From positions 64,381-128,380 of the forward strand of contig JAZDOC010000017.1 in NCBI GenBank assembly GCA_043798935.1: a DNA stretch of 64,000 nucleotides, written 5' to 3'. Below, piece by piece: positions 15,476 to 47,137 of this stretch; the stretch's first letter is position 1; each line of letters begins with the position of its first letter. This DNA comes from Patescibacteria group bacterium. GTDB lineage: Bacteria > Patescibacteriota > Patescibacteriia > UBA9570 > JAHJKD01. Below the pieces are notes generated by a model. It had not been told where the DNA came from, did not search any database, and was given only the letters and a program-made list of their open reading frames with translations. The translations under genes and the position numbers were made by a program.

Positions 15476-16042
15476 TTGCAGGTAACGCTTTTTATGTTTC
15501 AAAAAAAATTGCATCACAATTCGCAACCGCGGATTTATGGTCGAAATAAAATTTATTTTTTAACAACCATTACATATCAGAGGTATTCATATTTTGATAA
15601 TGATGTTTTTTGTAATATTTTATGGAATGACATTTTTTATACAAAAAAATTAAAACAATTTCATATATTTGCCTTTGTAATTATCAATAATCATTTGCAT
15701 ATAATAGTGCAACCGTATGGGAGATATAATATTTCCGAGATTATGCAATCATTAAAAATGAATTCATCTCATAATATTAATAAAATAACAAGACAATATT
15801 TTAATAAGCGTATTAATGATAGGAAAGGCGCGAATACGTATTCGCGCCTTCAATTTTCTATAAAAGCAATGAAATTTAGATGGCAACATTCTTTTTATGA
15901 TCACATCATACGTGATCGGAAGGATTTATTGAATCATGTAAATTATATAAAGGATAATCCCTTAAAACATAACTTAATTAAATCAAATGAAAAATATACA
16001 TGGATTTTTATTAATCTAGACAAATTCGTGAAAATTTTATAA
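15476..16042 (+). mobile_element. REP-associated tyrosine transposase (RAYT, IS200/IS605 TnpA-like, Y1 HUH family).
   Basis: 188 aa. It has the HUH motif NHLHIIV and the C-terminal RAYT signature RWQHSFYDHIIRDRKDLLNHVNYIKDNPLKH, with the catalytic Tyr in the YIxxNP context. The cognate palindrome lies upstream and internally. Confidence 0.7.
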
Positions 16043-19935: not shown

Positions 19936-19980
19936 TTAAATGTGATATAATAAATTAGTCTTTATTAGCTTATTTAATGA

Positions 19981-20760
19981 ATGTCAGACATTAAACAAAT
20001 ACAAAAAAACAAACGCATCCAAAGGCAGATTATTGGAATTTTTGTGGTAGTTGGTTTAGCAGTTTTAATACTTGGTTTTTTAAATTTAAGAAGTAATTTA
20101 AAAAAGCCGTTTATAAGCTATTATACCAATTACAATAAACTTACTGATGAACAAGAACAAACCGATGCGCTTTTAGCCCTCCGCGCCAAAGATTCTGATG
20201 GCGATGGATTGACCGATTACGATGAGTTATATCAATATAAAACAAGTCCTTATATAGCAGATTCTGATTCTGATGGCTACGACGATAATACTGAAATTAG
20301 CAGCGGATATGACCCAAATTGCCCAAAAGGGCAAGATTGCAAGCGTTTAATTGATGAAACTAGCACTAATACAAACTCGGCCTCAACCAATACAGATACC
20401 AGTGAAGAGCTAACCCCTGAACATTTAAGGCAAGTATTAATTGCTAATGGAGTTTCTCAAGCAGATTTAGACTTATTAGACGACGCTACTTTAATGGAAT
20501 ACTACCAAGAGGCTATTAATGAATCCAACCAAGATGTTGAGCAGAAATACAGCGAAAATACTAATGAAACAGATCCGAATGCAGAATTATTAAATACTAA
20601 TCAGTCGACTAATAACACAGCGAGCGTGGGAAGTCTGCAAAATTTATCGGCCGATGATTTAAGAAAATTATTAATAAACACCGGCGATTTCAGTGAAGCA
20701 GACTTAGCTACCATTGATGACGATCAATTAATGAGTATTTATCAAGAATCAATAAAATAA
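19981..20760 (+). CDS. Membrane-anchored protein with Ca-binding TSP3/dockerin-like Asp repeats and an internal ~40-aa duplicated helical motif.
   Basis: It has an N-terminal TM helix (IIGIFVVVGLAVLILGFL) and the Asp repeats DSDGDGLTDYDE and DSDSDGYDDNTE. A duplicated segment reads LTPEHLRQVLIANGVSQADLDLLDDATLMEYYQEAI and LSADDLRKLLINTGDFSEADLATIDDDQLMSIYQESI. Confidence 0.55.
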   Translation: MSDIKQIQKNKRIQRQIIGIFVVVGLAVLILGFLNLRSNLKKPFISYYTNYNKLTDEQEQTDALLALRAKDSDGDGLTDYDELYQYKTSPYIADSDSDGYDDNTEISSGYDPNCPKGQDCKRLIDETSTNTNSASTNTDTSEELTPEHLRQVLIANGVSQADLDLLDDATLMEYYQEAINESNQDVEQKYSENTNETDPNAELLNTNQSTNNTASVGSLQNLSADDLRKLLINTGDFSEADLATIDDDQLMSIYQESIK

Positions 20761-20771
20761 ATTTTTATATT

Positions 20772-23700
20772 ATGCCAACTCTACTCAAACATAAAAAAAT
20801 AATTATCAGCTTATTATTAATTAGTACGGTTTTATTAAGTATATCCGGCATTTTTTATCCAAAAACTACTTATGCATTTCCAGCTGAAATCACTACTCAA
20901 GGTCCGGATTGGCAGATAAAAAATATTAAAGAAGTTATTTTAAAAAAGCTTCAAGACATTGGTTATGGTATGTACAGAAATGCCATGAATGCTTTTTTGG
21001 GCCGAGCTGCCTATGATTTAGCCACTGCTATTGCGACTGGAGGAACCGGGCAACAACCATTAATGTTTACGGAAACACCCGGTGCTTATGTTCGAGATTT
21101 AGCTGATGCAGCTGCCGGAGCCGCTATTGAAACTTTTGCCACTGACCTTGGTTTTGATGCGGCCGCTATATGCCACCCCACTAACCCAGAATTTAAAATT
21201 AAACTTGGTCTCGACTTGGAAGGATTGTTTGGTGGGGAAAGCTATTATAAACCGGTTTGTACTTTTTCCGAGTTTCAGGATAATTGGAATGATTTTTTTC
21301 AGGATCCAGAATTTGATAAATTTGTTTCAGCCCAATGGGATCCCAAAGTAAACCCGCTTGGGCAGGCACTTTCTGCAATTGATTATGTCCAAGCTCAATA
21401 CGATGACGCTACAAAACAAGCTGAACTTGAAAGATTAGTGAGTGGCAGTTTTAAAGACTTGAAAGATCTTGGAGGACACATTACTTCGCCTGGGTCGTTA
21501 ATAGAAAAGCAATGGGGAATTACTCAAGAAACTAGTTTTGAGGGTTTAAAATCTTTAGGTTCACCACTAGCCGATGCAGCTAATATTTTTTCAAATACTT
21601 TGTTTACTAAGTTATCTAAGCGAGTTCAGCAAGGCTTGGTTTCTATAACCAGCTTAAATTTATCCAGTTTAATAGCCGGCTCATCAGGCGGTACAACTTC
21701 AGGCATTAAGGCCGCGCAAGCTACTTACACTTCCTTTAATCAGCCTAATTTTGTGACTACCGGCAGCTATGATGTACTGGCAGATTTAGCGATTTGTCCT
21801 GAAGCCAGCGCAAGCACTTCTGAAAATTGCGTTATCGGTTCTACCATGCAAACCGCTATTGAAAATAAGTGGACTGTTAATGAATTCGTGGATTATTTAT
21901 CAGAAGTACAAGGAAATTCGGAATTTAGGTTTTCTCAAGATAATATTGGCAGTCCGGAAGAAGGCATTACTTATCGTGGAATATTAGTTTTGAAAAAATA
22001 TCGCATTGTTCCGGTTGGCTGGCAATTAGCCGCTGAATTTATTCGAAGCGAGAAAACAACTCAGGAGCCAACATTAAAACAATTAATGGATTGTTATGAT
22101 GCTTGCGGTGCTGAAGGGTCGCAAGGTGAGTGTCAATATATATTGGAAAACACTACTTATTCGCCGTTTTGTAAATTAGTTGATCCGTCTTGGGTATTAA
22201 AAGCACCGGAATATTATTGTGAACGTGAAGCACCGGGCTCGAGCATTGTGTATGATGAATTTTACGATACGGATGGCATGTCGCAAACTCAAGAAACCAG
22301 AACTATTGGTCGGGCTCAAGAATGTGTGGACGAACGTGGCTGTATTCAGGAACAAGTGGAAAATATTTGTACAGCTTATGGCTATTGTTCAGCTGAAAAA
22401 AGAATTTATCGTAGCGACGGCGACGTGTGCGATGCGGCTTATGCATCGTGCCAGTCTTTTGAAGTTAAAGAAGAAGGTGATGTGCTCGAAGGGCAAACTG
22501 TTTCTTATTTAAAATACGATTTAAATTACGGCGATTGCGCTACTGATCCGGGATGTAAATGGTATTGCTTGGCGCAAGATGCCGGGGGCTCTTATATATG
22601 TAAAGATCAAGACACTGTTTATAATGTTTGCGACAATTCTGACAGCACTTATTACACGGCTGAGAGTTGTACTTGCGAAACGCAAGAAAGTTGCTGGGTA
22701 AATGCCGGATCCGGTTCAGAAGATGATAGATACCGAACTTGCAGTTTAGGTTATTGTGCTGAAGACTCAACCATAAATTTAAAATCAGACTGCGATGCCA
22801 TTAGCGGCACGTGGGTAGGAAGCGGTGCCACTTGTAATTTAGGTGATAATTGCGGTGAAACAAGCCCGTATTATAGCCATACTAATGAGCAGTGTTATTG
22901 TTCGGTTCAAAATTCTTGCGACATCTATGTTGATACCGACGGCGATGGATACACTAGTGGTTCAACCAGTTCTTGTATATATACATACGATAGCGGTGAA
23001 GCAATTAATTGCTCGTTAAGCGCTGATTGTTCAGCCGATAATGAAACTTATTCATCACAGGGTTATTGTAAAGCCTATGATGCCGGGGATAATACTTGTA
23101 TTGTTCAATCCGGTGCAGGCAGTTGTATCAATGATTTAGGAAATACTTGTACTTTTGGGTATTGCGTTAACGATGATGGCGGATATGAAAGCGACGGCAT
23201 GTTAGATTGCGCTGATGATGGGTTTACTTGGCTTACAACAGCTTGCACTAGCGATATAGCCGATGTTCCTGATGCCAGCGGTATCAATAAATATTGTACT
23301 TGCAATTTAGGTGATGCTGATATCTGCGAGGTATCTGAAGGTGGCTATTCATGCACTACCGATAGTGGTACCAAACAAATATTAGGCACCGAAGAAGAAG
23401 CTGATATTGTTCCCGACGCACCGGATTTAGTTTATAATGTTTCAATTAATTTAGATCATAATGCAGCTGAATGCGATAGTGAAAATGCAGGCTGTAATTT
23501 ATATTATAGGGTTTTATCTGATACGAACCTACTATATAACGCAACTTTCCAGACAATTTATACGGCTGGTGGCGATGAAGTTGACGATGAGTTTGATAAT
23601 CAAGATCGTTTTGGTTTCTATGCTATTACCGGGCAAGGTTGTTTAATAGACGACGCTACCGCTGGTGGATGTATCGGTTGGCAGCAGCACGGAGTAAGCG

Positions 23701-26700
23701 CTTACGCCATTAGCGGTAATGGTGATACGTATAATCATCCAGACATCATAAATACTTATGGGCAATCCATAATATTACCGGCCGATACTACTGGCACTGG
23801 CTATATTTCCAACACCATTGATACCGGTTATGAGTTAGCTGATAGAACTTTCATTTTTGCATATAGTGGTGCCAGCGATTCTTCAGCCACGCCAAAATTT
23901 GCTGTTGGCTCGGCTGATGGTTCATACTCTATAACTATTCCCACTTCCATTTCCAGCGACGAAACAGCTGATTACGATTATTATAATGAAGACGGTTCGA
24001 TTATTTCTTATAGCACTACATATCAAGATTATTATTACACCTTTACTTTCCCGAATAGCGTTACCGATACTGCTATTACGGTTTATATTTATGCGTCGAC
24101 TGAAGCTGACGTTTCAATCGATGTAGCGCAATTAACTGAAGCTTCCTCATGGAACGGTAGTTATGCCGGTTATGGAGAAAATAATGCTACATATTTATAT
24201 GGGCAAAATGTTGAATGTGAAGCCGAAGATATCGGTTGTAAATTGTATACTCCGCTAGATCAAGATGATGCCACAGCTATTCCGGCGCAAATTACCAATC
24301 CTTATTCCACGGTTTGCGGATCAGGCAGTGATTTTTCAAACATTAATTGTAATCAATGTAATAACATCGATACTGAGCTTGGCCAAGAAGATTATTATGT
24401 GGGTTGTGATTTTTATCAGGAAATGCCGCTTACAAATAATTTCCCGGTTGCATCAGATCCAACCAGTTGGACGCTTTCTGACGTTACCGAGCGGTTAGCT
24501 GTAGCTCAGCGTACCGGTTATTATTGTGCCGATACCACTATTTCTTGTTTTCCTGGCGATCCAGACGGCTATTGCGCTTCACCGCTTGATTGTGTAAATA
24601 ATGTTTCCTTAATTCCAGATACTGGCTTGTCTTGTTCGGCCAGCGCGGTTGGTTGCGAGGAATATACCAACCTCGATACTGTATCTAGTGGTGGCGAAGG
24701 ATTAGAATATTATTCTTTCATTAAACAGTGTGTTAAAGATACCGACGATAATGCTTATACATTTCATACTTGGGAAGGCTCGGATACTGATGGCTATGCC
24801 ATGGTTCTTTATAATCTTAAAGCTTCTAACATTGAAGAAGATGGCAGTGTTTGTACAGACGGCATTTGCCCGCCTTGCACGCATTTAGATCCTGAAGTCG
24901 AAGATCCTAATGCCGAATGTCTAGACAGCACCGATCCAACTTCTTTATATTATGTTGAAGATTGTACAGCCGTATATGGCACAGATCCTGATTGTGTTAA
25001 ATTATATGATGATGAATTAAATACTTATTACCGTTATGCTTCTCAAACCGTTACTGTTTCCGCCGACTGCTTAGCACTTAGAAACACTTTAGATCAACGA
25101 GTTTATTATTCCATGTTAGATGAAAGCACGACTTGTTCGGCCGCTGATGCCGGGTGCCGAGAATATCAGGGTAGCGACAGCGGAGCAGTTGAACAGATTG
25201 TTAATGAAGTTTACGATGAAAATTCTACGGATAATTGGACTGGTGCAATTTCCACTTCCAATGAATCATTATTTACCGACGATTATTCACTTCGCTTAGA
25301 TAGCGGCACTCCCGATGACGATCCATCCTTAGACGCTACAACAGCTAATACCATTACTTACAATTTATATACAACCACTACTGGTTCAGACGGCGAAACT
25401 GTTTATTATTCCGATGTGGATGCGGGCGCTACTTATATTGCTACTTTCTGGGCCAAGGGTGATGGTGCCTTAAACATTAGTTTGAATGGTGCCAGTTTAT
25501 CCGATACTTATTACTTCACAGAAACTGGTTCAGAATTAGGAAGCGCAACATCTACTGATCGCGATATCGCAATTTCCGATAGCTGGACATATTATATTCT
25601 TGGCCCCATAAATTTGCCGGCTGGTGAAGATACCGACGACGCAGCTTTAGTACTAAATTATACTGGTAGCACTTCTAGTTCAGCCGGATACATCGATAAC
25701 GTAGTGATCGAGAAAAACAGCAGTCAATATTTAGTCAAAGGCAGTTTTGACTCTTGTTACGATTATGAAGGTTGCCGACGTTATCGTGATAATGATAGAG
25801 ACACAAATTATCTAAAATCATTCAAAAGGCTTTGCGAAGATTCAGCCGTGAATTGTGAAGCCATGTTTAACACTTCCAATTCTACCAACGAATTTACCGA
25901 AATTTTCTTAACCACTAATGAATATTCAACTGATGATGTAGTCGTGCCTTATGATCAAATTCAACCGGTAATTTATAATAGTGATGAAACTTGTTCATCG
26001 ACAAATAAGGGATGCACAGCCGTAGCACTTCCAGATATTAATGAACAAACCGGATTAATAAGCTCATTAGATACGGTTTATCGTGTATTAGACCCAGATA
26101 AATACAGCGTCAGTTTATGTGAAGACCCGCATTTACAATGCAAAGAATATTATTCTGACTATGATGGTACAGTATATTTTAAAGATCCAGGAGACAGAAC
26201 TTGTGATTATAAAACCTACACCAATTCCGATGGTGCCAGTGTTTATGGATGGTTTATAAAAGATTCTGAAGCCACCAGTCCGAATTGCCCGAAAATGTAT
26301 GAATACGACGATCCGTCTCAACCAATGGGTTCGGTTTGTAATAGCAATAGCTTAACTAAAACCGGCGATAAATGTAATAACGATTATGATTGCTACCCAG
26401 ATGGCTGGTACAGTGGCATGCCCACACCGCGTTGTATTTCTCGAGTTGAAGATGATATTGATCAAGATGCTGCCAATGGCTACAGTTTAGACAGAAACAA
26501 AAATTTCGGTTGGGTTGGAACTTGTGATGAACAAAATAGTGGTTGTAGTGAATATATTGATCCTAACAGTCCGAATATTGAAGAAGCTATAAGGAATAGT
26601 GGTTTTGAAAATAATGTTAAAAATAACGTGACTGGTATTTATTATACCGGCGGTGGAACCGAGGAAGATTTGCCGGATTATTGGACGCCGGTTGATAATG

Positions 26701-29700
26701 GTGAGCCGGATGAAGAAACCACAATTACTACTTCTACCATTACCCCAACTTCATATACCGTTTCAGCTTTATCATCTGTAATCGAGCGCACTATTTCAGC
26801 CAGTTCGCCATCTACCGGAACACCTCGAAGCGGTGGTGAATTACCGGGACGGGGTGAAATTGTTGGCCCATCTTCTACCAGCACTGATTACGATATTGTT
26901 TTTGTTATTGATAATAGTGCGGGCTTAGAATTTTATGATAATGACCTTGATGATGGTGATGGTTCTTATAGCGACTTCATGGATGAAGACGATGTTGGTT
27001 GCCTGCCCCAAGGTTATGGTGCTACTTGTGAGAGTTATTCAGACATGGAAACATATATTCAAAATTTAGCCGATACTGTAACTGGTTTTTCGAGTGAATT
27101 AGACTCTAACGGTTTGACATATAAAATGGCCGTGGTTAAAGCTAGTAATCCGAGTGATGACTGGAGACCAGAAGTAGTTCAAGACATGACGAGCAGTGTT
27201 TCTGATGTGGTTAATACCATTACAGATTTAGGAAATAATGTTAGCGGTCATGAGGAACATATTTATGAAGCACTGAATTATTCTCGAGGAACTTATGTTG
27301 AAAGTGGTTATAGATTTAGCATTAGTTATGACACAGGCGCTACCAGAATAGTAATACTTTTAACTGATGCATATCCAAGTAGCGATACTCCTTCTAGTTT
27401 AGGTGATAGTTATACTAATAGTCATGGAACAAGCGGTGTTTCTTGGGATAGTTTTGATGAACGTCCTTTAAAAGAGGATATTGGAACAGGCTATACTTTA
27501 TATGCAATAGTTTCAAGTAATGATAGAACAGTTGATTATGCTTCAACTTATTATAATCCTTCGGGTGAAGCCACAACAATACTATATACTGGCACTGTTT
27601 ATGCTAATGAACCGGCTTATGACGCAATCGCATCATATACGGGCGGAGCGATTTATGAAATAGATACGGCTGATTATAATACAATTTTTTCCAGTATTAC
27701 TGATAGTATAATGGCCGATCGGGACACTGATGGCGATGGCATAGATATCGATGACGATGCTTGTTCAACTGAAGACGCATCTAGTTGTGATATCGATAGT
27801 GATGGATGTCTTGATGATGAAGATGGTGATGGTGTAAGTGATTGCGTTGATGAATGTTTAGGTTCAGACGCCAGCGATTACGATACCGACAGCAATGGCT
27901 GTATCGACGACACCGACGATGATGGCATTTTAGATGATGCGGACACAGATATCGACGCCGACGGCATAGAGGAAAGAGATTTAGATGAAGATTGGAGCTC
28001 CACTACCGATGGCGCTGAAGGAACAGCCGAGTGCTTCCAGCGCGATGAAAATAGATTTAAAGACGGCACTAATAGTTTAATGATGACCGGCGATTGTGCC
28101 ATAGTGAGCGATTATGTACCAATCGAAAGAAACAAACTTTATACACTAGAAGCATATTTCAGTATTGAAGAATATGGTCAATATGAAGGCGAAGATGATG
28201 ATAAATACCAGGATGTAAGCATTGGTGCATATTTTGTTAAATATAATGAAGACAGAAACACTTGGGAATACGTGGAAGCAACTGATGCTCAAACATATTT
28301 TGTGGCTGATAATTTAACTGTCACCCCGACCGACTATGAACAATCTGATGATTTTTCAACCGATACATCTGACCAGGATCTTTATAGCAAATGGTTGAAA
28401 GTGTCTGGTAATATCGGCATAGGATCAGACGTAGAAATCCCTGAAGATGCGGAGTTTGTTAGAATATATCTGGAAGCTAAAAATCATGGTGATGTATTAT
28501 CGCCTTGGTTCGATAAAAATGTTTGGTTTGATAGTGTAAGCTTTAAAGAGAATGATAAATATTTCATGATCGACAGCACTGTTGACGGCACTGATGAAAG
28601 AGAAGCTACTGATGAGGTGCACACTTGTATTGATCAAGACACTGAAGAAGAGGCAGTCACTTCCGATGGTGGGTGCGTAGCATTTAGAGACGCATTAAAA
28701 GATTCACAGTATTATGTACAATTTGTGACCGATGGTACATGCAATAGTTGTTCTATTACCCCAAACAGTGATTCTTGTCGGGGCGTAATTGACGCTTGCG
28801 ATACTAATGCCATATTAAAAGTTCAGAAAGATCGTGTTTGCGATGAATGGGTGGCTTGCGAGACTGCAGAAATTATTGAAGATAGCAGTGGCAGTTCAAA
28901 ATATACCTGTTTCAGTTTACAGCCGTGTAATAAAATTAACGATGAAGGTAAATGTATTTCCTGGGTGCCAAAACCGGTTTATGAGGATTTGGATACCCAA
29001 ACTGATATAACTTATTATACTGCCGCCGGCGATACAGACCAACTATATGCCATGCAAAATTTAACCGGTTATGTTAAGGCCGGTTTAACCTGGAGCGATT
29101 ATAAAATGTGTAATGGTGGTATTAATGCTGGTAATTATTGCACTTCTAATGATGACTGCTTAGATGTTGGAACATGTGAAAGCGAAGTTATTGATTTACC
29201 GGACGAAGATGGAGGTTTGGGTATGGATATTATACAATTTGTCTGTCTCGGTGGTTCGAAAAACGGTGAAGATTGTGCCAGCTCTTCTGCCTTTGGTCTT
29301 AGTGGTGATGATTCGCTTTGCGAAGGCGACTGGGATGGCGCATGTAACTTACCACTAATCGTTGAAGGTTATTATCCTTACGGTTGGATGTATGAAGCCG
29401 GAGAAGCCGGGTCTGAATACGGCGTTGAACTTATAGAATATAATAATTTTGAAAATTTATATTGTGCTGGCAATAAAATTAAAAATAGGATTCCTTGTAT
29501 AAGTAACAGCTATGAATCTGAAATCGGTAGTCATTGTTGGTCGGCTAATTTAGAAGTATATCAGAGCGACGAAGATCCTAATAATGATCCAGTTGAAGGA
29601 ACTTCAGGTGAAGATAATAAGTCAGCAGATTATTATTGTGCTAATTCAACTGAATGGAGTGAATTCCCTTTCAGCCAGCCGGCTGAATATACCGAAACCG

Positions 29701-32700
29701 GATGGTCTGGTTATATTGGTAATGAAAAAGTACAAGTGAAACAATATGATAATCAATATGGTGATAATGAGAGTATAGACATTAATAATGTGCTTAAAGC
29801 ATCGGGCGCCATGACTTCTGCTGGCGAAAACATCGGGTTAAAATATGATTTAAGCACAAATATTCAAAATAATGGATATTATGCCTTGTCTTTTAAAGGT
29901 CTTTATACTAGCAATTATTATAACGCCAATTCTGACAAACCAAGTTCAATTAGCGTGGGTTTGCGACATAATAACATAGTCACCGACGGCACTGATACTG
30001 AAACGCAAAATATTGATTGGTTTATTCAGGGTGCGGGCATGGCCGATGTGGTGTTTGTAATCGACAGTTCAAGTTCAATGAGCGGTTATATGGCTGGTGT
30101 AAAAACTGCGGCTACTGATTTAGCATCTCAGCTTCAAGCAGTCGGCATTGGCGCTAAATTTGCCATTGTTGATATGGACTATTTATCTTCATCATTATCT
30201 GGTCCTTATGAAAGGGGACAGGAATACAACAATGTTAATACATTAGATCTTGATTTAACAGATAATTTAAGCACATTTGGTAATTATATAGATACTTACA
30301 TTCAAGCAGCGCAAGCCCAAGTTGATCCTTTTGCTGCTGTTCAACAAGTAATAAACAACGATTTAACTTTAGTAGATCCTCTTGGCCCGCTTGATAGTTC
30401 AGAAATATCATACCGCGACGCATCGGAAAAAATAATTATTGTAGTTACTGATACTTATGATGAATATGTGGAGTATGATAGTCGCGATACCTCAAGTTAT
30501 GCTGGTGCTTATGATTTAGAAAACAATATTCCTTATGATGGTTATTATGCCGACTTCTTAAATAGTTCCGGATTTACCGTTTATACTATCACTACGCCAA
30601 CCATGTATAATTATGGCGATTATAATGATCTAGCTTCTTATTCTGGCGGTGCAGTTTATGATACGCTTTCTACTACAACGGCCAACTGGACTGCTACAAT
30701 TCTAGACATTTCTGATCGCATTATTGCCAATGCTGATGTATTCCAATTTTCGCAGAGCTTAGATAGCTTCGCTTTCGGACCAATTAAAGTAGTTGAAAAA
30801 AATCCTTGCACTGATAGCGATTGCGACCCGGTTGAAAATGTAGCTTCAGGTGAACTCGTCACATCAGACTTAATCTTTGTTAGCAATGACGGTATGTCGT
30901 TTGAAATTGACGACGTTTTTTTACTACCGGTGCTTGAAGTAAATAAAAATTTAAACCCGATTAGCCGATCTTGCCGAGCCTACGCTAAAGATGGAGATAA
31001 AGAGTGTGTTTATACTGAACCAAATGGCGTACAGCACAAAGGTTGGAGAGGATATTGTCTTGAAGCTGACCCGGAAAATAGTAGCCGTTGTATTACTTGG
31101 TGGCCGCTTGATGTAATTGCGGGCGAATCTACCATGTACACGCGTGAACGTGGCGGGTATAGTGGTCGATCCAATGTTTATATGTGTTTAGCCGCTAAAG
31201 GTTATGAACGCCCTGGTTTTTGTAGTGGCACTGATGTTGAGGGAAATGATTATGATAATTTAGCTCCTGGCGATGGTGTATTATGCCAACCAGGAAGTTG
31301 GGATGATACAATGGGTCGAAGTAACACATGTGGTGCTGGTGGTTTAAGCAGATGTTTTTATGGCGCTGAAGATGTAATTTCTGAAGAGTATAGCCGTGAT
31401 GGAGGTTTTGTATGTGATGTTTTATTAGCCGCAATGATTTTTGAGTGCGGAGAGAGTTATTTAATAACTGGCGGTTTAACAATTTCGGCTAATCCTTTAT
31501 GTACAGCGGCAATTACAGCTTATTCTCTAGAGTGTTTAGCCGGCTCTGGAGGAGATAATATAGACAATACTTATACAGAAAAATTTATTCATGATCCCGG
31601 TATCTGCCAAGTACAAGATGATGATGATTTACAAACAGATTGTGGAGCATACCCTTCAGAAAATACCTGGGTATGTTCTACCGATACTATTACCAATCAA
31701 GATGAGTGTGAAGAAAGCGGTGCAACATGGAGCTTGGCAAATATTAATGTCTTCGACAGTAATATAACTTATACTGGCAAATGTATTTATTATAATAATT
31801 ATGAGGACTATGGAGATGATCAAGATTTATCTGCCACACATACTTATTGTTTTTATGATGGAAATGAAGACGGTATTACTGAAATTAGAAGCACCTTTGA
31901 TTGTAATAGCGACAGTGTATGTCAAATTAGCCCTACTGTTACTGGCAAGCAGTGCGCACCCATGCAATGTGTGGGCACGAATTCTACACCATGCAGTCCG
32001 GCTTCCTGTGATGACCGATATGGTGCGTTGGTATTAAAGGGTTTACAAGCAGTTGCTAATACTCTTGATCCGTCAGGTTATACTGCTCAAGTACTTCCCG
32101 GTCTATTAACACATAATTGTGAACCAGAAGAAGCTTGCGGACAGCCGACCACTTTGCATAATAATACTAACAATTACGGTTTAGTGACTCGCAGTTGGCA
32201 GATGTATGATCCGTATCATATAAATTTAAGTGAGAAAAACTATGGTGTTATTTCCAAATTAGAAGCTAATGTGGCCGAAAAAAATATTAATATTAGTGAA
32301 ATCGAAAGTATCGATATTTTCTTGGGTGATGCCGGTAAAGGTAGCGGTGGTGATGAAGAAGCATTATTCTGGGGGCAAGGCGGTAGCGATAGTGATGGAC
32401 CTTTTAAGGATGACAATGGCACTATTACAATTACTGATTTAGCGGCGGGTTCAATTCCCGAAGAAGGCGCTGATGGTAGTAGCGACGGCCCGTGGTCGCA
32501 TTGTATGGGTGTTGACCAAGGTTCAATTGAAGGTGCAGGTTGTTGGTGGTGGGGTCAGTACGATAGCCGTGGAAAAGCCGATAAAGTTGGCGTTTATACC
32601 TCTGATGGAAATCCGATTAACGACGACAGTACTTATGATTTAGTATATGTCTGGGGTTGGAGTGATTTCATGAAGCATGATAGTGGCTGTAATGGTACCG

Positions 32701-34400
32701 GTACCGATCCTGATCAGCCGGACGAGTATTTTCAAACTATGAATAGCGATGGAAATAATAAGTATTTCTTAGATAGTAAGTGTATGGACAATGCCATTGC
32801 TTATGTAATGAATGGTGGTAAAGGCGGCACTACTAGCAGTGGTAATAACCCGTGGAATTATGTTGGTGGCGCTTTAGAAGATTTAAGTGAGGATGGCAAT
32901 GATGCTGTTGGTTTCGAGAGACCTGGTGGATGGGAAGGTTTCGGAAATGAAGATGGTAGCAATACTCATCATGGTGGAGCAATTTACAGTATTTGGTTGG
33001 ATTTTGATGGTGATGGATTCTTAAAAGATATTTATACCATGGTTTATGATGGCGCTGATGGCATTGATGATAGTATTTATGGAGTAGAAATTACGCGTGA
33101 TGCCATGATTTCCATGAAATATAATTTACGCGAAACTTGTGCTTTGGTTGCACCAGTAGTTAGCCCCAGCGGTGATAATTATGCCTGGGCCAACCGTGCC
33201 AGTTGTTTAGGTGCTACTAATTACGATAATGTTGGTTTTTATTGCGATGATACTACCGAGCCTTGGGGTTCAATCGCGCCCATGGACGGATCCATTAATG
33301 CATCTTGGGATAGTATTGATGAATATGATGATACCACAACTAATCCATATAAAATGACAGCTTATGGCCAACAACCGTTTTTCTTCTACGATTCTAAGGA
33401 TAAGGGAGTTGTCACAGCCGGCAAGCCTTATTCATGTATCGGCCAATGTGAAAATAGTTATTGCCAAGGAGATAAATCTTACAATGGTGAGCCTTGCGAC
33501 AGCGCTAATGATTGCGGTGATGGTTTTTGCGTGGGCGCCGGCACGGATATAAACGATAATATCAGTGGCATTGGTTTATATCCGGAAAGCGCGAGCGGTG
33601 ATGATTATAATACTTATCATTTTACAAGTTATGCTGATCAGCTGGATTATGTGGCTGACAATGCACAGAATAAATTAAATAAGTTATTTGCTGATACAAT
33701 GGGGCCGGCTTATTATGTAGATTATGCACCACTTGATGAAATATACGGTATTTATCATCAAGACGCAGATAATGCTTTTTGGGACAAACAATCATTTATA
33801 GACATGCCTGAATGCGTGGGCGACCGCGATACTTCAACCATTAGCGCATCAGCTCTTGATTATTGCGGTGTGCGCCCAACAATTTCTGATATTTATCTAG
33901 ATGGCCACAGCGCTAATACATTAACCGCGACCGGTGTGTCTTACTACTCAATTTATAAAGGCCAAGCCGTAAAGCTTACTTTTAATTCCTCGGCCGATGT
34001 TGAACAAATACCCGTGCATAAAGTAATGATCGATTGGGGTGACGGTCGGGTGACGAACCAAACCTGGGACGCTTTGCCGGGCGAACATGTTTATACACAC
34101 GCTTATGGTTGCGGTCCAGAATATGCCAACTTTATGTATTCGTATAAACCGGGTGAGGCATGCTATTATAAAGGGGCGATCACAATTACCGATAATTGGA
34201 ACTGGTGTTCGGGTGCCACTAAAACCGGCACTTGCAGTGATAACACTTATAAATTCGAGCGCACTTGCAGGGCCGCTAGCGAAACCTGGACCGAAGACGA
34301 CAGCGATTACAGATTCTTTGAAGAAGATGGATCAGACATTATGGCCAATTGCGGCAGTCTGGATTATTTCCCCATGATTATTAAAGTCACTGAAGAATAA
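20772..34400 (+). CDS. Giant 4542-aa secreted/surface Cys-rich protein. It has two von Willebrand factor A domains, a thrombospondin type-3-like Ca-binding repeat block and a C-terminal PKD-like motif.
   Basis: It is a single uninterrupted 13.6 kb ORF with an N-terminal signal/TM (IIISLLLISTVLLSISGIFYPKTTYA). The vWA MIDAS motifs are DIVFVIDNSAG (nt 26892) and DVVFVIDSSSSMSG (nt 30045). The TSP3-like block DRDTDGDGIDIDDDACS...DSDGCLDDEDGDGVSDCVDEC...DTDSNGCIDDTDDDGILDDADTDIDADG spans nt ~27718-27990. The PKD-like motif is IDWGDGRVTNQTWDALPGEHVYTHAYG (nt ~34029). Cysteines are very abundant. Confidence 0.8.
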   Translation: MPTLLKHKKIIISLLLISTVLLSISGIFYPKTTYAFPAEITTQGPDWQIKNIKEVILKKLQDIGYGMYRNAMNAFLGRAAYDLATAIATGGTGQQPLMFTETPGAYVRDLADAAAGAAIETFATDLGFDAAAICHPTNPEFKIKLGLDLEGLFGGESYYKPVCTFSEFQDNWNDFFQDPEFDKFVSAQWDPKVNPLGQALSAIDYVQAQYDDATKQAELERLVSGSFKDLKDLGGHITSPGSLIEKQWGITQETSFEGLKSLGSPLADAANIFSNTLFTKLSKRVQQGLVSITSLNLSSLIAGSSGGTTSGIKAAQATYTSFNQPNFVTTGSYDVLADLAICPEASASTSENCVIGSTMQTAIENKWTVNEFVDYLSEVQGNSEFRFSQDNIGSPEEGITYRGILVLKKYRIVPVGWQLAAEFIRSEKTTQEPTLKQLMDCYDACGAEGSQGECQYILENTTYSPFCKLVDPSWVLKAPEYYCEREAPGSSIVYDEFYDTDGMSQTQETRTIGRAQECVDERGCIQEQVENICTAYGYCSAEKRIYRSDGDVCDAAYASCQSFEVKEEGDVLEGQTVSYLKYDLNYGDCATDPGCKWYCLAQDAGGSYICKDQDTVYNVCDNSDSTYYTAESCTCETQESCWVNAGSGSEDDRYRTCSLGYCAEDSTINLKSDCDAISGTWVGSGATCNLGDNCGETSPYYSHTNEQCYCSVQNSCDIYVDTDGDGYTSGSTSSCIYTYDSGEAINCSLSADCSADNETYSSQGYCKAYDAGDNTCIVQSGAGSCINDLGNTCTFGYCVNDDGGYESDGMLDCADDGFTWLTTACTSDIADVPDASGINKYCTCNLGDADICEVSEGGYSCTTDSGTKQILGTEEEADIVPDAPDLVYNVSINLDHNAAECDSENAGCNLYYRVLSDTNLLYNATFQTIYTAGGDEVDDEFDNQDRFGFYAITGQGCLIDDATAGGCIGWQQHGVSAYAISGNGDTYNHPDIINTYGQSIILPADTTGTGYISNTIDTGYELADRTFIFAYSGASDSSATPKFAVGSADGSYSITIPTSISSDETADYDYYNEDGSIISYSTTYQDYYYTFTFPNSVTDTAITVYIYASTEADVSIDVAQLTEASSWNGSYAGYGENNATYLYGQNVECEAEDIGCKLYTPLDQDDATAIPAQITNPYSTVCGSGSDFSNINCNQCNNIDTELGQEDYYVGCDFYQEMPLTNNFPVASDPTSWTLSDVTERLAVAQRTGYYCADTTISCFPGDPDGYCASPLDCVNNVSLIPDTGLSCSASAVGCEEYTNLDTVSSGGEGLEYYSFIKQCVKDTDDNAYTFHTWEGSDTDGYAMVLYNLKASNIEEDGSVCTDGICPPCTHLDPEVEDPNAECLDSTDPTSLYYVEDCTAVYGTDPDCVKLYDDELNTYYRYASQTVTVSADCLALRNTLDQRVYYSMLDESTTCSAADAGCREYQGSDSGAVEQIVNEVYDENSTDNWTGAISTSNESLFTDDYSLRLDSGTPDDDPSLDATTANTITYNLYTTTTGSDGETVYYSDVDAGATYIATFWAKGDGALNISLNGASLSDTYYFTETGSELGSATSTDRDIAISDSWTYYILGPINLPAGEDTDDAALVLNYTGSTSSSAGYIDNVVIEKNSSQYLVKGSFDSCYDYEGCRRYRDNDRDTNYLKSFKRLCEDSAVNCEAMFNTSNSTNEFTEIFLTTNEYSTDDVVVPYDQIQPVIYNSDETCSSTNKGCTAVALPDINEQTGLISSLDTVYRVLDPDKYSVSLCEDPHLQCKEYYSDYDGTVYFKDPGDRTCDYKTYTNSDGASVYGWFIKDSEATSPNCPKMYEYDDPSQPMGSVCNSNSLTKTGDKCNNDYDCYPDGWYSGMPTPRCISRVEDDIDQDAANGYSLDRNKNFGWVGTCDEQNSGCSEYIDPNSPNIEEAIRNSGFENNVKNNVTGIYYTGGGTEEDLPDYWTPVDNGEPDEETTITTSTITPTSYTVSALSSVIERTISASSPSTGTPRSGGELPGRGEIVGPSSTSTDYDIVFVIDNSAGLEFYDNDLDDGDGSYSDFMDEDDVGCLPQGYGATCESYSDMETYIQNLADTVTGFSSELDSNGLTYKMAVVKASNPSDDWRPEVVQDMTSSVSDVVNTITDLGNNVSGHEEHIYEALNYSRGTYVESGYRFSISYDTGATRIVILLTDAYPSSDTPSSLGDSYTNSHGTSGVSWDSFDERPLKEDIGTGYTLYAIVSSNDRTVDYASTYYNPSGEATTILYTGTVYANEPAYDAIASYTGGAIYEIDTADYNTIFSSITDSIMADRDTDGDGIDIDDDACSTEDASSCDIDSDGCLDDEDGDGVSDCVDECLGSDASDYDTDSNGCIDDTDDDGILDDADTDIDADGIEERDLDEDWSSTTDGAEGTAECFQRDENRFKDGTNSLMMTGDCAIVSDYVPIERNKLYTLEAYFSIEEYGQYEGEDDDKYQDVSIGAYFVKYNEDRNTWEYVEATDAQTYFVADNLTVTPTDYEQSDDFSTDTSDQDLYSKWLKVSGNIGIGSDVEIPEDAEFVRIYLEAKNHGDVLSPWFDKNVWFDSVSFKENDKYFMIDSTVDGTDEREATDEVHTCIDQDTEEEAVTSDGGCVAFRDALKDSQYYVQFVTDGTCNSCSITPNSDSCRGVIDACDTNAILKVQKDRVCDEWVACETAEIIEDSSGSSKYTCFSLQPCNKINDEGKCISWVPKPVYEDLDTQTDITYYTAAGDTDQLYAMQNLTGYVKAGLTWSDYKMCNGGINAGNYCTSNDDCLDVGTCESEVIDLPDEDGGLGMDIIQFVCLGGSKNGEDCASSSAFGLSGDDSLCEGDWDGACNLPLIVEGYYPYGWMYEAGEAGSEYGVELIEYNNFENLYCAGNKIKNRIPCISNSYESEIGSHCWSANLEVYQSDEDPNNDPVEGTSGEDNKSADYYCANSTEWSEFPFSQPAEYTETGWSGYIGNEKVQVKQYDNQYGDNESIDINNVLKASGAMTSAGENIGLKYDLSTNIQNNGYYALSFKGLYTSNYYNANSDKPSSISVGLRHNNIVTDGTDTETQNIDWFIQGAGMADVVFVIDSSSSMSGYMAGVKTAATDLASQLQAVGIGAKFAIVDMDYLSSSLSGPYERGQEYNNVNTLDLDLTDNLSTFGNYIDTYIQAAQAQVDPFAAVQQVINNDLTLVDPLGPLDSSEISYRDASEKIIIVVTDTYDEYVEYDSRDTSSYAGAYDLENNIPYDGYYADFLNSSGFTVYTITTPTMYNYGDYNDLASYSGGAVYDTLSTTTANWTATILDISDRIIANADVFQFSQSLDSFAFGPIKVVEKNPCTDSDCDPVENVASGELVTSDLIFVSNDGMSFEIDDVFLLPVLEVNKNLNPISRSCRAYAKDGDKECVYTEPNGVQHKGWRGYCLEADPENSSRCITWWPLDVIAGESTMYTRERGGYSGRSNVYMCLAAKGYERPGFCSGTDVEGNDYDNLAPGDGVLCQPGSWDDTMGRSNTCGAGGLSRCFYGAEDVISEEYSRDGGFVCDVLLAAMIFECGESYLITGGLTISANPLCTAAITAYSLECLAGSGGDNIDNTYTEKFIHDPGICQVQDDDDLQTDCGAYPSENTWVCSTDTITNQDECEESGATWSLANINVFDSNITYTGKCIYYNNYEDYGDDQDLSATHTYCFYDGNEDGITEIRSTFDCNSDSVCQISPTVTGKQCAPMQCVGTNSTPCSPASCDDRYGALVLKGLQAVANTLDPSGYTAQVLPGLLTHNCEPEEACGQPTTLHNNTNNYGLVTRSWQMYDPYHINLSEKNYGVISKLEANVAEKNINISEIESIDIFLGDAGKGSGGDEEALFWGQGGSDSDGPFKDDNGTITITDLAAGSIPEEGADGSSDGPWSHCMGVDQGSIEGAGCWWWGQYDSRGKADKVGVYTSDGNPINDDSTYDLVYVWGWSDFMKHDSGCNGTGTDPDQPDEYFQTMNSDGNNKYFLDSKCMDNAIAYVMNGGKGGTTSSGNNPWNYVGGALEDLSEDGNDAVGFERPGGWEGFGNEDGSNTHHGGAIYSIWLDFDGDGFLKDIYTMVYDGADGIDDSIYGVEITRDAMISMKYNLRETCALVAPVVSPSGDNYAWANRASCLGATNYDNVGFYCDDTTEPWGSIAPMDGSINASWDSIDEYDDTTTNPYKMTAYGQQPFFFYDSKDKGVVTAGKPYSCIGQCENSYCQGDKSYNGEPCDSANDCGDGFCVGAGTDINDNISGIGLYPESASGDDYNTYHFTSYADQLDYVADNAQNKLNKLFADTMGPAYYVDYAPLDEIYGIYHQDADNAFWDKQSFIDMPECVGDRDTSTISASALDYCGVRPTISDIYLDGHSANTLTATGVSYYSIYKGQAVKLTFNSSADVEQIPVHKVMIDWGDGRVTNQTWDALPGEHVYTHAYGCGPEYANFMYSYKPGEACYYKGAITITDNWNWCSGATKTGTCSDNTYKFERTCRAASETWTEDDSDYRFFEEDGSDIMANCGSLDYFPMIIKVTEE

Positions 34401-34409
34401 AATTTTTAT

Positions 34410-37157
34410 ATGAGAAATTTTTTAGCCAAATTAAAAAAAATATTTATTACAAAGCCGATTTATGCCTTATTCGCTGTTTCTATTATTAGCATCGGCTTAA
34501 TTTTTCCCATATCATCATGGGCTCTGGATCCGGTTGCTTGGGTGGCTGATAGCATAACAGTTGATTTGGCTCGAATTTTAGTTTGGCTGATGTACATGCT
34601 TTTTATTTTTATTGCTGGCCAGCTCGGAACTTGGCTTACTGGCATGATGGTGTGGGCTTCCGGGTTTACGGGTTTTACAAATATCAGCGTGGTCACTGAA
34701 ACTTGGATGGTGGTTAGAGATTTATGTAATCTGCTTTTTATTGTCATGTTATTAATCATTGCATTTGCTACCATACTGCAGATTGAATCCTACTCATACA
34801 AAAAATTACTGCCAAAATTAATAATTGTGGTATTACTTATAAATTTCAGCCAGATGATTTGCGGTCTTGCGGTAGACGCGGCCCAGGTGGTAATGCTTAC
34901 TTTTGTAAATGCTTATAGCGGAGCCGCTAAACAAGGTTTTTATCAATTATTCCAGCTAAAAGATCTAGTAGATTTAGGATGGGATAAAGAAATAGATGCC
35001 GTCAGTACAGTTGCCGGCGCAAATGGCAAGAAAAATTGGCAGAACATGGATTATTTGCTAGCCGTATTTGCTTCGGGCGTAATGCTTACGCTAATCTGCG
35101 TAATCATGATAACAATATTTTTAACTTTAGTTGCCAGAATCGTCTTTATTTGGACGCTTACTATATTGTCTCCATTAGCTTTTGTCGCTTCAATTCTTCC
35201 TATTACTCAAAAATATTATCAGCGTTGGCTGTCTATGTTTGGTCGGTATATTGCGGTTGGTCCACTGCTGGCTTTTTTTGTCTGGTTGGCTTTATTTGTT
35301 GTGGTTAAAGCTGGGGATAGCGGTATATCTAGTCAACTAACTATACCTGGCTCCGGGCTTGTGGACGGTCCTAGTAACCTGACTGTAACTAAAGCGCTTG
35401 AGCCGGATGTTTTTATTAATTTTACCATTGGCTGCATGATGCTAATGATTGGCATTAAACTCGCGCAGGAAATGTCCTCGGAAATTAGCGGCATGGTCAG
35501 TAAAATTGCCGACATGCCGAAAAATGCCGCCAAGTGGTATGCCACCCGGCCGTATGCTTTGGGTAGATGGGGTGTTGGAAAAGCTTGGGGCGGTGTCAAA
35601 AAAGAAGCATTGGCTCGGGCCTCTTTATTGAATTCTCAAATATATGCTAAAACCGGTATTCAACTCAATCCGGCAAAGCGTTTGGAAGGAAAGCTTCGCG
35701 AAATAAACGAGGAAACACACTTAAATGAAGTAAAAGGCGAAATAGGTGGATTAGATCATATTGGAAGAGGCGAAGGCATCAGAGGATGGGCGGGTGCGCC
35801 CGGTTCGTTTTGGCGTTATTCTGGTCCGTTAAAAATGTGGGGGCAAAAAGGCGATCAAAAAATGCAAGAAAAATTAGCTGTTAGAAAAAAAGAACTAGAA
35901 GAAAGTGAAAATTATAAAAAAAATGTTCAAAGCGCAGCTGACGCAAGAGATAGAGTGGTTAATGGACAAGAACCAGTTAAAACAACGGCTCAAAATAATC
36001 TGGAAACACTAGACAGAAAAGCACAGTTAAAAGCAATGATGGATAGCATGAAAAAACTCGATGGCAATATAGATCAAGAAAAAATTATTGGTGCTATTAA
36101 AAGTCTTGGTTTACAGGACTTATATATGAATGGCAATGCATTGAAAGATGACTTTTTATCTGATTTAGAGAATGTTGATACTGAAAGAGAAGAGCAAAGA
36201 ACAAGCATAAGAACTGCTGATGCAGAAATCGGAAAAGCTCATGAACAATACGAAAAGGCTATTGAAGCAGCCAAACCGCAAGAGTTAAAAGATATTAATA
36301 AACAGATGGAAGGACTTTCCTTTGTATTTGATCCACGTAAAATGAAATTGTTGCAAGAGCATACTACTAAAATGTCTGATGGTTATAAAACTATAAATGA
36401 TGGTGAAATAGTTGATATGTATCGTAGTTTAGTGAGAATGGGAAAACATAATGAAGCATTGGCCTTATATTATCATGCTGCTAAAGTGGGCCATGGTAAC
36501 GAAATATTGAAAGCAGAAAAATTGCCTGTTAACGGCGAAGGCTTAGACAAAATGGAAAAAAAGTTTAAAGATGCTGGTTTAGGTGAGCAATATGTAAGAA
36601 GTGTAATGAATATGGCTAGCCAAGCCGCTGAACATAACGGCCATAATGCAATTGCCAGATGGTATACTAGTGAACATGGCCAAATAAAGCGCATCAGCCA
36701 GGAAGAGCACGATTTAATTACTGCAATTGAAGCTAGTAAAGAAGGCATTAGAACCAACTTGAGCAATGGTAATCATATGCGTTGGGGCGAGTATGATGGT
36801 CAAAAGAATTGGTCAATGCAAAATGCAATGTTGCATATGTTAATTCGCGGCGTAGATAAAAATGTAGCTCATAGTATTGAACATGGTCATACGGTTATTG
36901 GAACAAATTTAGTTCATTCATTACGTAAAGAAATGGTAGAAACTGCCGCATTAATTGGTGCGGCAGAAAAAGAAGGCAATGGCCACGTTGTTAAAATTTT
37001 AACTGATATTATAGGAGCCGATAAACTTGCGCAAGTTAGGTCCACTCAGGGTGAAAAAATTGGACAATTAGTCCAAAGTAAGTTAGCAGCTGTTCATAGA
37101 ATAGATCATAGAATAACCCCAGACTCCTCGCATAGGTTTGGCGTTGGCATATCCTAG
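34410..37157 (+). CDS. Polytopic membrane protein of 915 aa, a candidate VirB6/TrbL-like T4SS channel component with a long hydrophilic coiled-coil C-terminal domain.
   Basis: About 8 predicted TM helices lie in the first ~350 aa, followed by ~550 aa that are hydrophilic and coiled-coil rich. The gene starts 10 nt after the giant gene. The assignment rests on topology, not sequence. Confidence 0.45.
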   Translation: MRNFLAKLKKIFITKPIYALFAVSIISIGLIFPISSWALDPVAWVADSITVDLARILVWLMYMLFIFIAGQLGTWLTGMMVWASGFTGFTNISVVTETWMVVRDLCNLLFIVMLLIIAFATILQIESYSYKKLLPKLIIVVLLINFSQMICGLAVDAAQVVMLTFVNAYSGAAKQGFYQLFQLKDLVDLGWDKEIDAVSTVAGANGKKNWQNMDYLLAVFASGVMLTLICVIMITIFLTLVARIVFIWTLTILSPLAFVASILPITQKYYQRWLSMFGRYIAVGPLLAFFVWLALFVVVKAGDSGISSQLTIPGSGLVDGPSNLTVTKALEPDVFINFTIGCMMLMIGIKLAQEMSSEISGMVSKIADMPKNAAKWYATRPYALGRWGVGKAWGGVKKEALARASLLNSQIYAKTGIQLNPAKRLEGKLREINEETHLNEVKGEIGGLDHIGRGEGIRGWAGAPGSFWRYSGPLKMWGQKGDQKMQEKLAVRKKELEESENYKKNVQSAADARDRVVNGQEPVKTTAQNNLETLDRKAQLKAMMDSMKKLDGNIDQEKIIGAIKSLGLQDLYMNGNALKDDFLSDLENVDTEREEQRTSIRTADAEIGKAHEQYEKAIEAAKPQELKDINKQMEGLSFVFDPRKMKLLQEHTTKMSDGYKTINDGEIVDMYRSLVRMGKHNEALALYYHAAKVGHGNEILKAEKLPVNGEGLDKMEKKFKDAGLGEQYVRSVMNMASQAAEHNGHNAIARWYTSEHGQIKRISQEEHDLITAIEASKEGIRTNLSNGNHMRWGEYDGQKNWSMQNAMLHMLIRGVDKNVAHSIEHGHTVIGTNLVHSLRKEMVETAALIGAAEKEGNGHVVKILTDIIGADKLAQVRSTQGEKIGQLVQSKLAAVHRIDHRITPDSSHRFGVGIS

Positions 37158-45896: not shown

Positions 45897-45900
45897 AATT

Positions 45901-47136: not shown

Positions 47137-47137
47137 C

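Follow-up and report, generated by a model that had tools for sequence, protein, structure and literature searches.

The 64,000-nt stretch of DNA analyzed here (contig JAZDOC010000017.1, positions 64,381 to 128,380; below, the window) carries a gene for a 4542-aa cysteine-rich protein. This giant protein is a member of an unnamed Patescibacteria family, and its gene is the first large gene of an operon that resembles a type IV secretion system (T4SS). We consider it somewhat probable that the giant protein is a host-binding surface component, exported by Sec, stabilized by disulfides, and associated with the relaxase-less T4SS-like machine of Patescibacteria. What is new here is the specific unnamed family, which has an architecture of its own, stands in a fixed place as the head gene of the operon, and contains variable module intervals.

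As an earlier sequence-only reading of this DNA had claimed, the gene (20772..34400, + strand) is a single uninterrupted open reading frame (ORF), which starts with ATG and runs through 4542 codons with no internal stop. Neither strand offers a rival ORF of at least 100 aa within it, and we infer that an ORF of this length cannot arise by chance in DNA of 38% G+C. The product is deposited as NCBI MFH0819051.1, a 'hypothetical protein' of a Patescibacteria metagenome-assembled genome (MAG). It has 170 cysteines (3.7%), a mass of 495 kDa, and a pI of 4.05; its composition includes 10.8% D, 9.4% S, 8.8% G, 8.3% T, 6.8% Y and 4.9% K+R, and S, T, and N together make up 23.5%. It thus appears, as proposed, to be a secreted, cysteine-rich multidomain protein with an N-terminal signal, and it is also very acidic. 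Cysteine-rich hairpins with the recurring motif C-x6-GC-x2-Y lie between its modules. No other paralogue of the family was found in the remainder of the 64-kb window.

A HMMER search with aa 3344-4542 against 1.84e9 cluster representatives found at least 264 relatives (numbered with P below), 43 of them at E<=1e-30. The full-length relatives (n = 24; 2511-5129 aa) are collinear with the window protein over their entire length, signal peptide and final strand included, with 28-59% identity over the aligned stretches. Coverage along the window protein, computed over 149 relatives, shows which parts are conserved: 24 relatives have aa 50-600, 26 have aa 1300-1900, about 100 have aa 2650-2780, 141 have aa 3370-3490, and 65-131 have aa 4100-4500. 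The variable intervals are aa 600-1280, 1830-2660, 2730-3395, and 3480-4110, and in the same intervals the relatives have other modules, namely PA14 (P0035 and P0055), dockerin (P0018), and an extra CBM_4_9 (P0074). In the databases, family members are named "hypothetical" or "vWA domain-containing", and searches of NCBIfam, PHROGs, and PDB sequences with the giant protein or its tiles gave no match. We found no prior description of the family in the literature, only general statements on giant surface proteins in bacteria from the candidate phyla radiation (CPR). Among the papers searched the family is undescribed, but it is not new to public data, where the relatives counted above were already present. 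The features of the gene are as follows.

20772..34400, + strand: giant gene, 4542 aa, 170 Cys, pI about 4, MFH0819051.1
20772..20876, + strand: probable Sec signal peptide (aa 1-35), with a K-rich n-region, a hydrophobic core, and predicted cleavage at T-Y-A/F (the slash marks the cut)
20877..22571, + strand: conserved N-terminal domain (aa 36-600), no assigned fold, in 24 relatives, with invariant columns and a structure model
22572..23483, + strand: spacer of Cys-rich beta hairpins (aa 601-904, with 27 Cys) that varies among relatives
23484..24176, + strand: jelly roll 1 (aa ~905-1135), CBM4/CBM22-type fold
25209..25736, + strand: jelly roll 2 (aa ~1480-1655), CBM_4_9-like by Pfam matches of relatives and hhalign
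26607..28571, + strand: probable jelly roll 3 (aa ~1946-2600), split by VWA1 and TSP3, with a clean insertion point relative to P0003
26874..27716, + strand: VWA1 (aa 2035-2315), paralogue of VWA2, metal site DNSAG, LLTD and TGG retained
27717..27992, + strand: TSP3-type repeat block (aa 2316-2407), seven DxDx[DN]G motifs, 6 Cys, putative Ca-binding
28689..29141, + strand: conserved block A (aa 2640-2790), Cys-rich, common to about 100 of the 149 relatives
29409..30986, + strand: jelly roll 4 (aa ~2880-3405), CBM_4_9-like, VWA2 in a loop
30027..30791, + strand: VWA2 (aa 3086-3340), intact D-S-S-S-S metal site, above the Pfam VWA threshold
30963..31241, + strand: family signature module (aa ~3398-3490), the most conserved block, in 141 of the 149 relatives
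32949..33878, + strand: conserved C-terminal region (aa ~4060-4369), mixed alpha/beta, fold unassigned
33879..34211, + strand: PKD-like Ig-fold domain (aa ~4370-4480), carrying IDWGDG...H.YTHAY

The conserved core of the family consists of the signal peptide, the 600-aa N-terminal domain, the Cys-knotted linkers, the Cys/Trp module, and the PKD-like end. The sequence-only reading, which had listed two VWA domains, TSP3 repeats, and a PKD-like motif, overlooked the CBM4_9-like jelly rolls and three parts of this core, namely the N-terminal 600 aa, the Cys/Trp module, and the Cys-knot linkers. The sole strongly hydrophobic stretch of the giant protein in the hydropathy profile is aa 4-28, and in the alignment consensus of the relatives an AxA-type site, P-A-x-A/Q, is conserved at the position where the signal peptide ends. 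Because of this single N-terminal segment and the conserved sites, a signal peptide with cleavage is probable, and the protein is expected to be exported. The N-terminal domain contains 18 cysteines, 13 of which are invariant across the family; over its first 1200 aa, the family alignment has 41 invariant columns, of which 18 are cysteine. Together with the collinear relatives, these columns speak for a real gene under constraint. Structure predictions, which covered aa 1-1200 and aa 3344-4542, arranged this domain as long helices, an alpha-rich subdomain (aa 330-480; predicted local distance difference test score, pLDDT, 72-87), and Cys-knotted hairpins. It had no match in Pfam, PDB, or PHROGs, and the family profile gave nothing consistent against PDB and Pfam. 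The 110-aa Cys/Trp signature module has the consensus RSCRAY..C.Y....G..GW.GYCLE.DP....C..WWP.D...GE and no Pfam match; like the bulk of the C-terminal third and the N-terminal 600 aa, it also had no match among NCBIfam, PHROGs, or PDB sequences. The Cys-knot linkers likewise have no relatives in Pfam or PDB.

Both VWA domains that had been claimed are real. VWA2 exceeds the Pfam gathering threshold for PF00092 (23.8 bits) in the whole protein (34.2 bits) and in a tile (26.4 bits, aa 3092-3292), and its metal-ion-dependent adhesion site (MIDAS) motif, D-S-S-S-S, lies at aa 3098-3102; the DxSxS pattern is kept in eight of the nine closest relatives. VWA1 scores 21.5 bits, under the Pfam threshold, and was recognized by its match to the VWA2-family profile (hhalign probability 99.9%, E 1.4e-33, 201 columns), by which we regard it as a diverged paralogue of VWA2. 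DIVFVIDNSAG at aa 2041 (nt 26892) and DVVFVIDSSSSMSG at aa 3092 (nt 30045) are separated by 1051 aa, in agreement with the proposed distance of about 1050 aa. As for their being two motifs of the MIDAS type, this stands for VWA2 but not for VWA1, where D-N-S-A-G is found in place of DxSxS and the last Ser is replaced. VWA2 is nested in a loop of jelly roll 4 and is common to only about 14 closest relatives. VWA1 and the TSP3 block are nested in the probable jelly roll 3. This VWA1 + TSP3 segment (aa 1985-2400) is present in none of the 24 full-length relatives and, relative to P0003, is a clean insertion of about 420 aa; judged by sequence comparison, it is a lineage-specific insertion. Thus, the combination of two VWA domains, TSP3, and PKD, put forward as the mark of a new family, does not define it.

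The TSP3-like run of DxDxDG motifs, which had been placed at nt ~27718-27990, is real at the level of motif and similarity. Seven DxDx[DN]G motifs lie in aa 2316-2398 (nt 27717-27965), where shuffling of the same 95 residues gave an expectation of 0.47, and none of 20000 shuffles reached seven. When the VWA1 + TSP3 segment was compared with 5.8e9 proteins, exactly two matched, both OmpA-like and annotated with PF02412 (E 1.8e-5 and 4.9e-5); the best of them is 44% identical to the TSP3 block over 85 aa, with the cysteines in register. The block also weakly matches 5wtl. In Pfam, neither PF02412 nor PF18884 matched, whether the tiles (E<=1) or the isolated 93-aa block (E<=10) were searched. At the C-terminus, the predicted PKD-like signature is real at the fold level: a PKD-type Ig-like beta-sandwich carries WxxGDG...HxY, with WGDG at aa 4422 (nt 34035), and no Pfam match to PKD (PF00801 or PF18911) was found in the window protein or in 32 family members. 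When the domains were annotated in tiles, VWA2 passed a Pfam threshold, whereas VWA1, TSP3, and PKD did not.

The giant protein also has jelly-roll folds of the CBM4/22 type. Jelly rolls 2 and 4 match each other (hhalign 98.9%, E 1e-17) in an alignment that spans the excision point of VWA2, and the family profile of jelly roll 4 weakly matches the CBM4 structure 1gui. Jelly roll 3 matches the others at just 24-65%, and its assignment is weaker than that of the other three. The window protein has no Pfam match to CBM_4_9 (PF02018); at equivalent positions, relatives exceed the threshold of 25.9 bits (P0018, 37.7; P0014 and P0035, 27.7; a segment of P0074, 26.7).

The stop codon of the giant gene (34398-34400) is followed on the same strand, after a gap of 9 nt, by the ATG of a VirB6-like gene at 34410, as the sequence-only reading had stated, and no terminator-like site was found between the two genes. 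The neighboring features are as follows.

19922..19951, + strand: promoter-like site TTGACC-18-TGnTATAAT, preceding the 259-aa gene, a pattern match only
19981..20760, + strand: small protein (259 aa) with a transmembrane (TM) anchor and bacterial TSP3 repeats, directly upstream of the giant gene
34410..37157, + strand: VirB6-like protein (915 aa), seven TM segments followed by a long soluble region; homologue of the C-terminal part of P0004
37175..42774, + strand: T4SS-like core, with a 623-aa protein, PrgI (VirB3-like), a 231-aa TraC-like protein, the VirB4-like ATPase, and a 210-aa TM protein
40223-42118, + strand: VirB4-like ATPase
44514..49301, + strand: conserved distal genes, for a pilin-like 460-aa protein (14 Cys), a 427-aa TM protein, a DsbA-like protein that lacks CxxC, and a 463-aa protein with 20 Cys

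The operon includes PrgI, P-loop_TraG/AAA_10, and a weak T4SS_pilin match, with recG nearby; a TraC-like gene is also present in the orthologous locus, and the VirB6-like protein has no match in Pfam. No relaxase or coupling-protein family was detected among the 30 window ORFs scanned, some small ORFs lying outside the scan. This operon type matches the chromosomal, relaxase-less, monoderm-type T4SS derived from MPF-FATA that has been described for Patescibacteria, and recG near the T4SS has been reported for the class ABY1 (PMC12102498).

The linkage between the giant gene and the T4SS-like module is conserved in many species. A VirB4 query of species-representative genomes found 582 relatives, and the best 80 of them (68-78% identical) were taken as VirB4-anchored loci (L001-L080) with 10-kb flanks; the VirB6-like query gave no match in the same scan of genomes. 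In 31 of the 41 VirB4-anchored loci that include a VirB6-like gene, a family member immediately precedes that gene in the same orientation, and this member nearly always extends beyond the 10-kb flank. When the loci were anchored on the giant protein instead, all four relatives (down to about 30% identity) had KsgA and a 241-305-aa gene directly upstream, the same arrangement as in the window. Downstream, L081, L084, and L085 have genes for a VirB6-like protein, a protein of about 450-590 aa, PrgI, a TraC-like protein, VirB4, and a pilin-like protein, in L085 with an additional 365-aa gene in the series; the contig of L083 ends 374 nt past the giant gene.

Synteny between L081 and the window extends from ComM through the pilin gene, and the proteins of this block have diverged to different degrees. 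The unusually conserved VirB4 is 75% identical between the two, the TraC-like protein 58%, and LeuRS 57%, against 36-39% for the giant protein and just 26-42% for the envelope partners of VirB4, namely the VirB6-like, 623-aa, and 210-aa proteins. The surface components are thus the fastest-evolving part of the syntenic block. Such fast evolution, together with the swapped modules in the variable intervals, is typical of a protein that contacts a host.

The 259-aa protein encoded directly upstream has the repeats DSDGDGLTDYDE... and DSDSDGYDD, and its orthologue in L081 (L081 9267-9992) is 40% identical with the same repeats. A gene of 258-305 aa occupies the same position in L083-L085; homology of the 241-305-aa genes found directly upstream of the giant gene in the four relatives is established for L081 alone. 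Because the promoter-like site precedes the 259-aa gene, this gene may be the first of the operon; the number of promoter-like sites in the region is not above chance.

Among the records behind the best 80 VirB4 matches, most titles refer to Kerfeld-, Falkow-, or Magasanikbacteria, to "Parcubacteria", or to no real lineage. Many related contigs (L001, L003, L011, L019, L020, and others) are titled 'uncultured Gammaproteobacteria bacterium' (third-party-annotation, TPA, assemblies), one 'Nanoarchaeota archaeon', and one 'Bdellovibrionales'. These labels look wrong, because the contigs carry a Patescibacteria-type T4SS locus with 70-78% VirB4 identity.

How might such a protein work? The giant gene would be co-transcribed with the VirB6-like, PrgI, and VirB4 genes, and its product would be exported by Sec with removal of the signal peptide. 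Outside the cell, it might fold into a long chain of modules kept rigid by about 85 disulfides, to which, in the window lineage, Ca2+ on the TSP3-type loops could add stiffness. The conserved N- and C-terminal parts may hold the protein to the secretion apparatus or the envelope, whereas the CBM4_9-like jelly rolls and the modules of the variable intervals (the two VWA domains in the window protein; PA14, dockerin, and extra CBM in relatives) may bind glycans and metal-coordinated ligands of the host cell. Binding to the host would secure the epibiont and thereby allow the T4SS-like machine to act.

Several observations weigh against this reading. Adjacency of genes does not prove a shared function, and 10 of the 41 loci with a VirB6-like gene have no family member within the flank, two of these ten being cut by contig ends. 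No LPXTG motif, C-terminal TM segment, or lipobox was found in the giant protein as an anchoring device, and for this reason its retention on the surface is an assumption. The metal site of VWA1 is incomplete. The CBM-like folds are generic jelly rolls, which do not imply sugar binding. No fold is assigned to about 60% of the giant protein, with aa 3500-4360 and the N-terminal 600 aa among the unassigned parts, and thus a hidden enzymatic or pore-forming activity is possible. Finally, the DsbA-like protein of the window has no CxxC and therefore does not explain how the disulfides would form.

This DsbA-like protein (47138-47917, + strand; Pfam Thioredoxin_4, 3.9e-18; N-terminal TM anchor) has SRFDNEQ at the site of the CxxC, and its two cysteines are far apart. 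Motifs of the CPYC or CPFC type are kept in 29 of 38 orthologues in related loci, and the nine without CxxC include those of the closest relatives (L001, L002, L004, L010, and L014). For this genome, we therefore rejected the DsbA-like protein as the candidate oxidant of the 170 cysteines; a DsbA that appears to be redox-dead shares the operon with the 170-Cys protein. Two further operon products (44514-45896 and 47910-49301, both + strand) are secreted or membrane proteins with 14 and 20 cysteines, the first with the weak T4SS_pilin match; since a single ORF matches both in many related loci, they are suggested to be paralogues.

One alternative, which we judge rather unlikely, is that the giant protein forms a general surface coat or a scaffold that captures polysaccharides, such as an S-layer-like fibre or a cellulosome-like glycan binder, with no role in secretion. 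The whole block from ComM to the T4SS, including LeuRS, Sua5, and KsgA, is syntenic in relatives, and thus the adjacency to the T4SS may be mere vertical inheritance; furthermore, assemblies that process glycans typically have CBM_4_9 and dockerin modules, and giant CPR surface proteins without linkage to a T4SS are known (PMC8080830). However, the 9-nt spacing and the same-strand arrangement are kept at 30% protein identity, neither a catalytic glycoside-hydrolase domain nor a cohesin partner was detected, and the operon also holds other cysteine-rich secreted proteins and pilin-like genes.

It is likewise unlikely that the giant protein is an integral extracellular part of the T4SS-like machine, that is, a wall-spanning stalk, the base or tip of a pilus, or a host-penetrating conduit, which would replace missing components of the VirB7/9/10 or VirB5 type and dock on the VirB6-like protein with its N-terminal domain. 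This explanation would account for the invariant position directly before the VirB6-like gene and for the family-wide conservation of the N-terminal 600 aa and the C-terminal blocks around a varying middle, and homologues of VirB8, VirB9, and VirB10 are scarce or absent in Patescibacteria (PMC12102498). In addition, the relative P0004 (5129 aa) joins a family member in frame to a VirB6-like protein, with six codons in place of the stop and the spacer; the C-terminal part of P0004 shares 32% identity with the 915-aa protein of the window (E 1e-131). P0004, however, comes from a single Logan contig of 29,861 bp, and its topology is awkward, in that the exported N-terminal part would invert the first VirB6-like TM segment. 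The fusion may be real or an artefact of sequencing or gene calling, and may give a weak hint of physical coupling. The giant protein, moreover, resembles no known T4SS component in sequence or fold, and at 36% identity it evolves far faster than the core machine.

The remaining two explanations fare worse. T4SS substrates normally have no Sec-type signal peptide, and the presence of one in the giant protein argues against a secreted effector or toxin that degrades the wall or damages the membrane of the host cell with its binding modules used for targeting. Such a role is very unlikely also because no toxin, hydrolase, or peptidase family was found by Pfam, NCBIfam, or PHROGs, and because a 495-kDa protein with about 85 disulfides would hardly pass through a T4SS channel, although large regions have no assigned function, and giant genes beside secretion systems in Omnitrophota have been proposed to act in the degradation of prey cell walls (bioRxiv 10.1101/2023.11.21.568195). 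An assembly artefact or a decaying pseudogene that stays open by chance, although the source is a MAG, is hardly credible and is ruled out as the main explanation, because full-length homologues in independent assemblies from other samples are collinear end to end and keep the invariant cysteines and motifs, and because the gene has no repeats able to cause misassembly (only two trivial 2-copy matches among tandem DNA repeats and no internal protein repeats by BLASTP).

To return to the proposal of a host-binding surface component, its nearest functional analogues appear to be PrgB (aggregation substance) of pCF10 and similar surface adhesins encoded in conjugative T4SS operons of Gram-positive bacteria (MPF-FATA). 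PrgB is likewise a large secreted surface protein encoded upstream of genes of the PrgH (VirB6)-PrgI (VirB3)-PrgJ (VirB4) type, and it has been proposed to bind polymers of the partner-cell envelope and stabilize the contact (PMC12857230). However, the giant protein does not belong to the same class: it contains no LPxT[GASN] anywhere, no C-terminal hydrophobic segment, and, by Pfam and NCBIfam, no polymer-adhesin, GbpC, or antigen I/II domain. It is also about three times larger and rich in cysteine, with CBM4_9-like jelly rolls and nested VWA, and the system to which it belongs is chromosomal and relaxase-less. In a survey of Patescibacteria T4SS loci with hidden Markov models (HMM), no adhesins such as PrgB were detected (PMC12102498).

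Other giant proteins are similar in part. Those of the CPR predator Vampirococcus lugosii (1392-4163 aa), compared by description only, have domains of the PKD, integrin, and fibronectin types and had already been proposed to function in host attachment, but they belong to the class Absconditabacteria and the paper reports no linkage to a T4SS (PMC8080830). The giant genes of Omnitrophota, also ultra-small host-dependent bacteria, encode multidomain proteins and have a fixed position by a secretion or pilus cluster (bioRxiv 10.1101/2023.11.21.568195). Their clusters, however, resemble the type II secretion system (T2SS) or type IV pilus (T4P) and precede the giant gene, and their proteins are far larger and proposed to degrade walls, whereas no hydrolase domain was found in the window protein. 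The extended VirB6 paralogues of Rickettsiales (for example Anaplasma VirB6-4, about 4300 aa) are a comparable case of a huge hydrophilic polypeptide physically coupled to the VirB6 channel subunit (PMC7648143; PMC12857230), and the fused relative P0004 is similar in this respect. In the window, on the other hand, the giant and VirB6-like proteins are encoded by separate genes, the former with its own predicted signal peptide, and no sequence similarity to the Rickettsiales protein was detected. The architecture also differs from that of receptor-binding proteins of phage baseplates and tail fibres (no PHROGs matches) and of cellulosomal proteins of the CBM4/22 type (no cohesin or catalytic partner), and the long tandem Ig-like or nonapeptide arrays of the repeat-built adhesins RTX, Bap, and SiiE are missing.

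In Saccharibacteria, epibiotic growth requires the T4SS and several adhesins (PMC10633639). The T4SS of Patescibacteria, which has no relaxase and whose function is unknown, is essential for this growth, and before it no T4SS had been shown to be essential for its own bearer; its cargo and the way it engages the host are also unknown (PMC10633639; PMC12857230). A giant, fast-evolving, module-swapping protein at the head of the operon is thus a concrete candidate for host recognition in uncultivated lineages. Tentatively, and as a possibility that we would not call probable, the family may supply the missing host-contact component of the essential T4SS in lineages of the Kerfeld-, Falkow-, and Magasanikbacteria type, as a disulfide-knotted stalk docked on the VirB6-like subunit, with the VWA, PA14, dockerin, and CBM intervals setting the host range. 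If so, the variable intervals would fix the host range much as receptor-binding proteins do in phages, and the VWA1 + TSP3 insertion would mark a recent change of host ligand. Comparison of the variable intervals with host co-occurrence in metagenomes could predict which lineage parasitizes which host.

Elsewhere in the window, a gene for an IS200-like transposase (15476-16042, + strand; Pfam Y1_Tnp, 1e-8) lies between a LysM-M23 peptidase gene and leuS. In the syntenic relative L081 this position holds no gene, and the transposase gene seems to be an insertion specific to the window, within a block that is conserved apart from it. Two further large ORFs, at 1781-5128 (+ strand, 1115 aa) and 61358-63565 (+ strand, 735 aa), lack a Pfam match and show no relation to the giant family; the product of the latter has 12 cysteines and a signal-like N-terminus.

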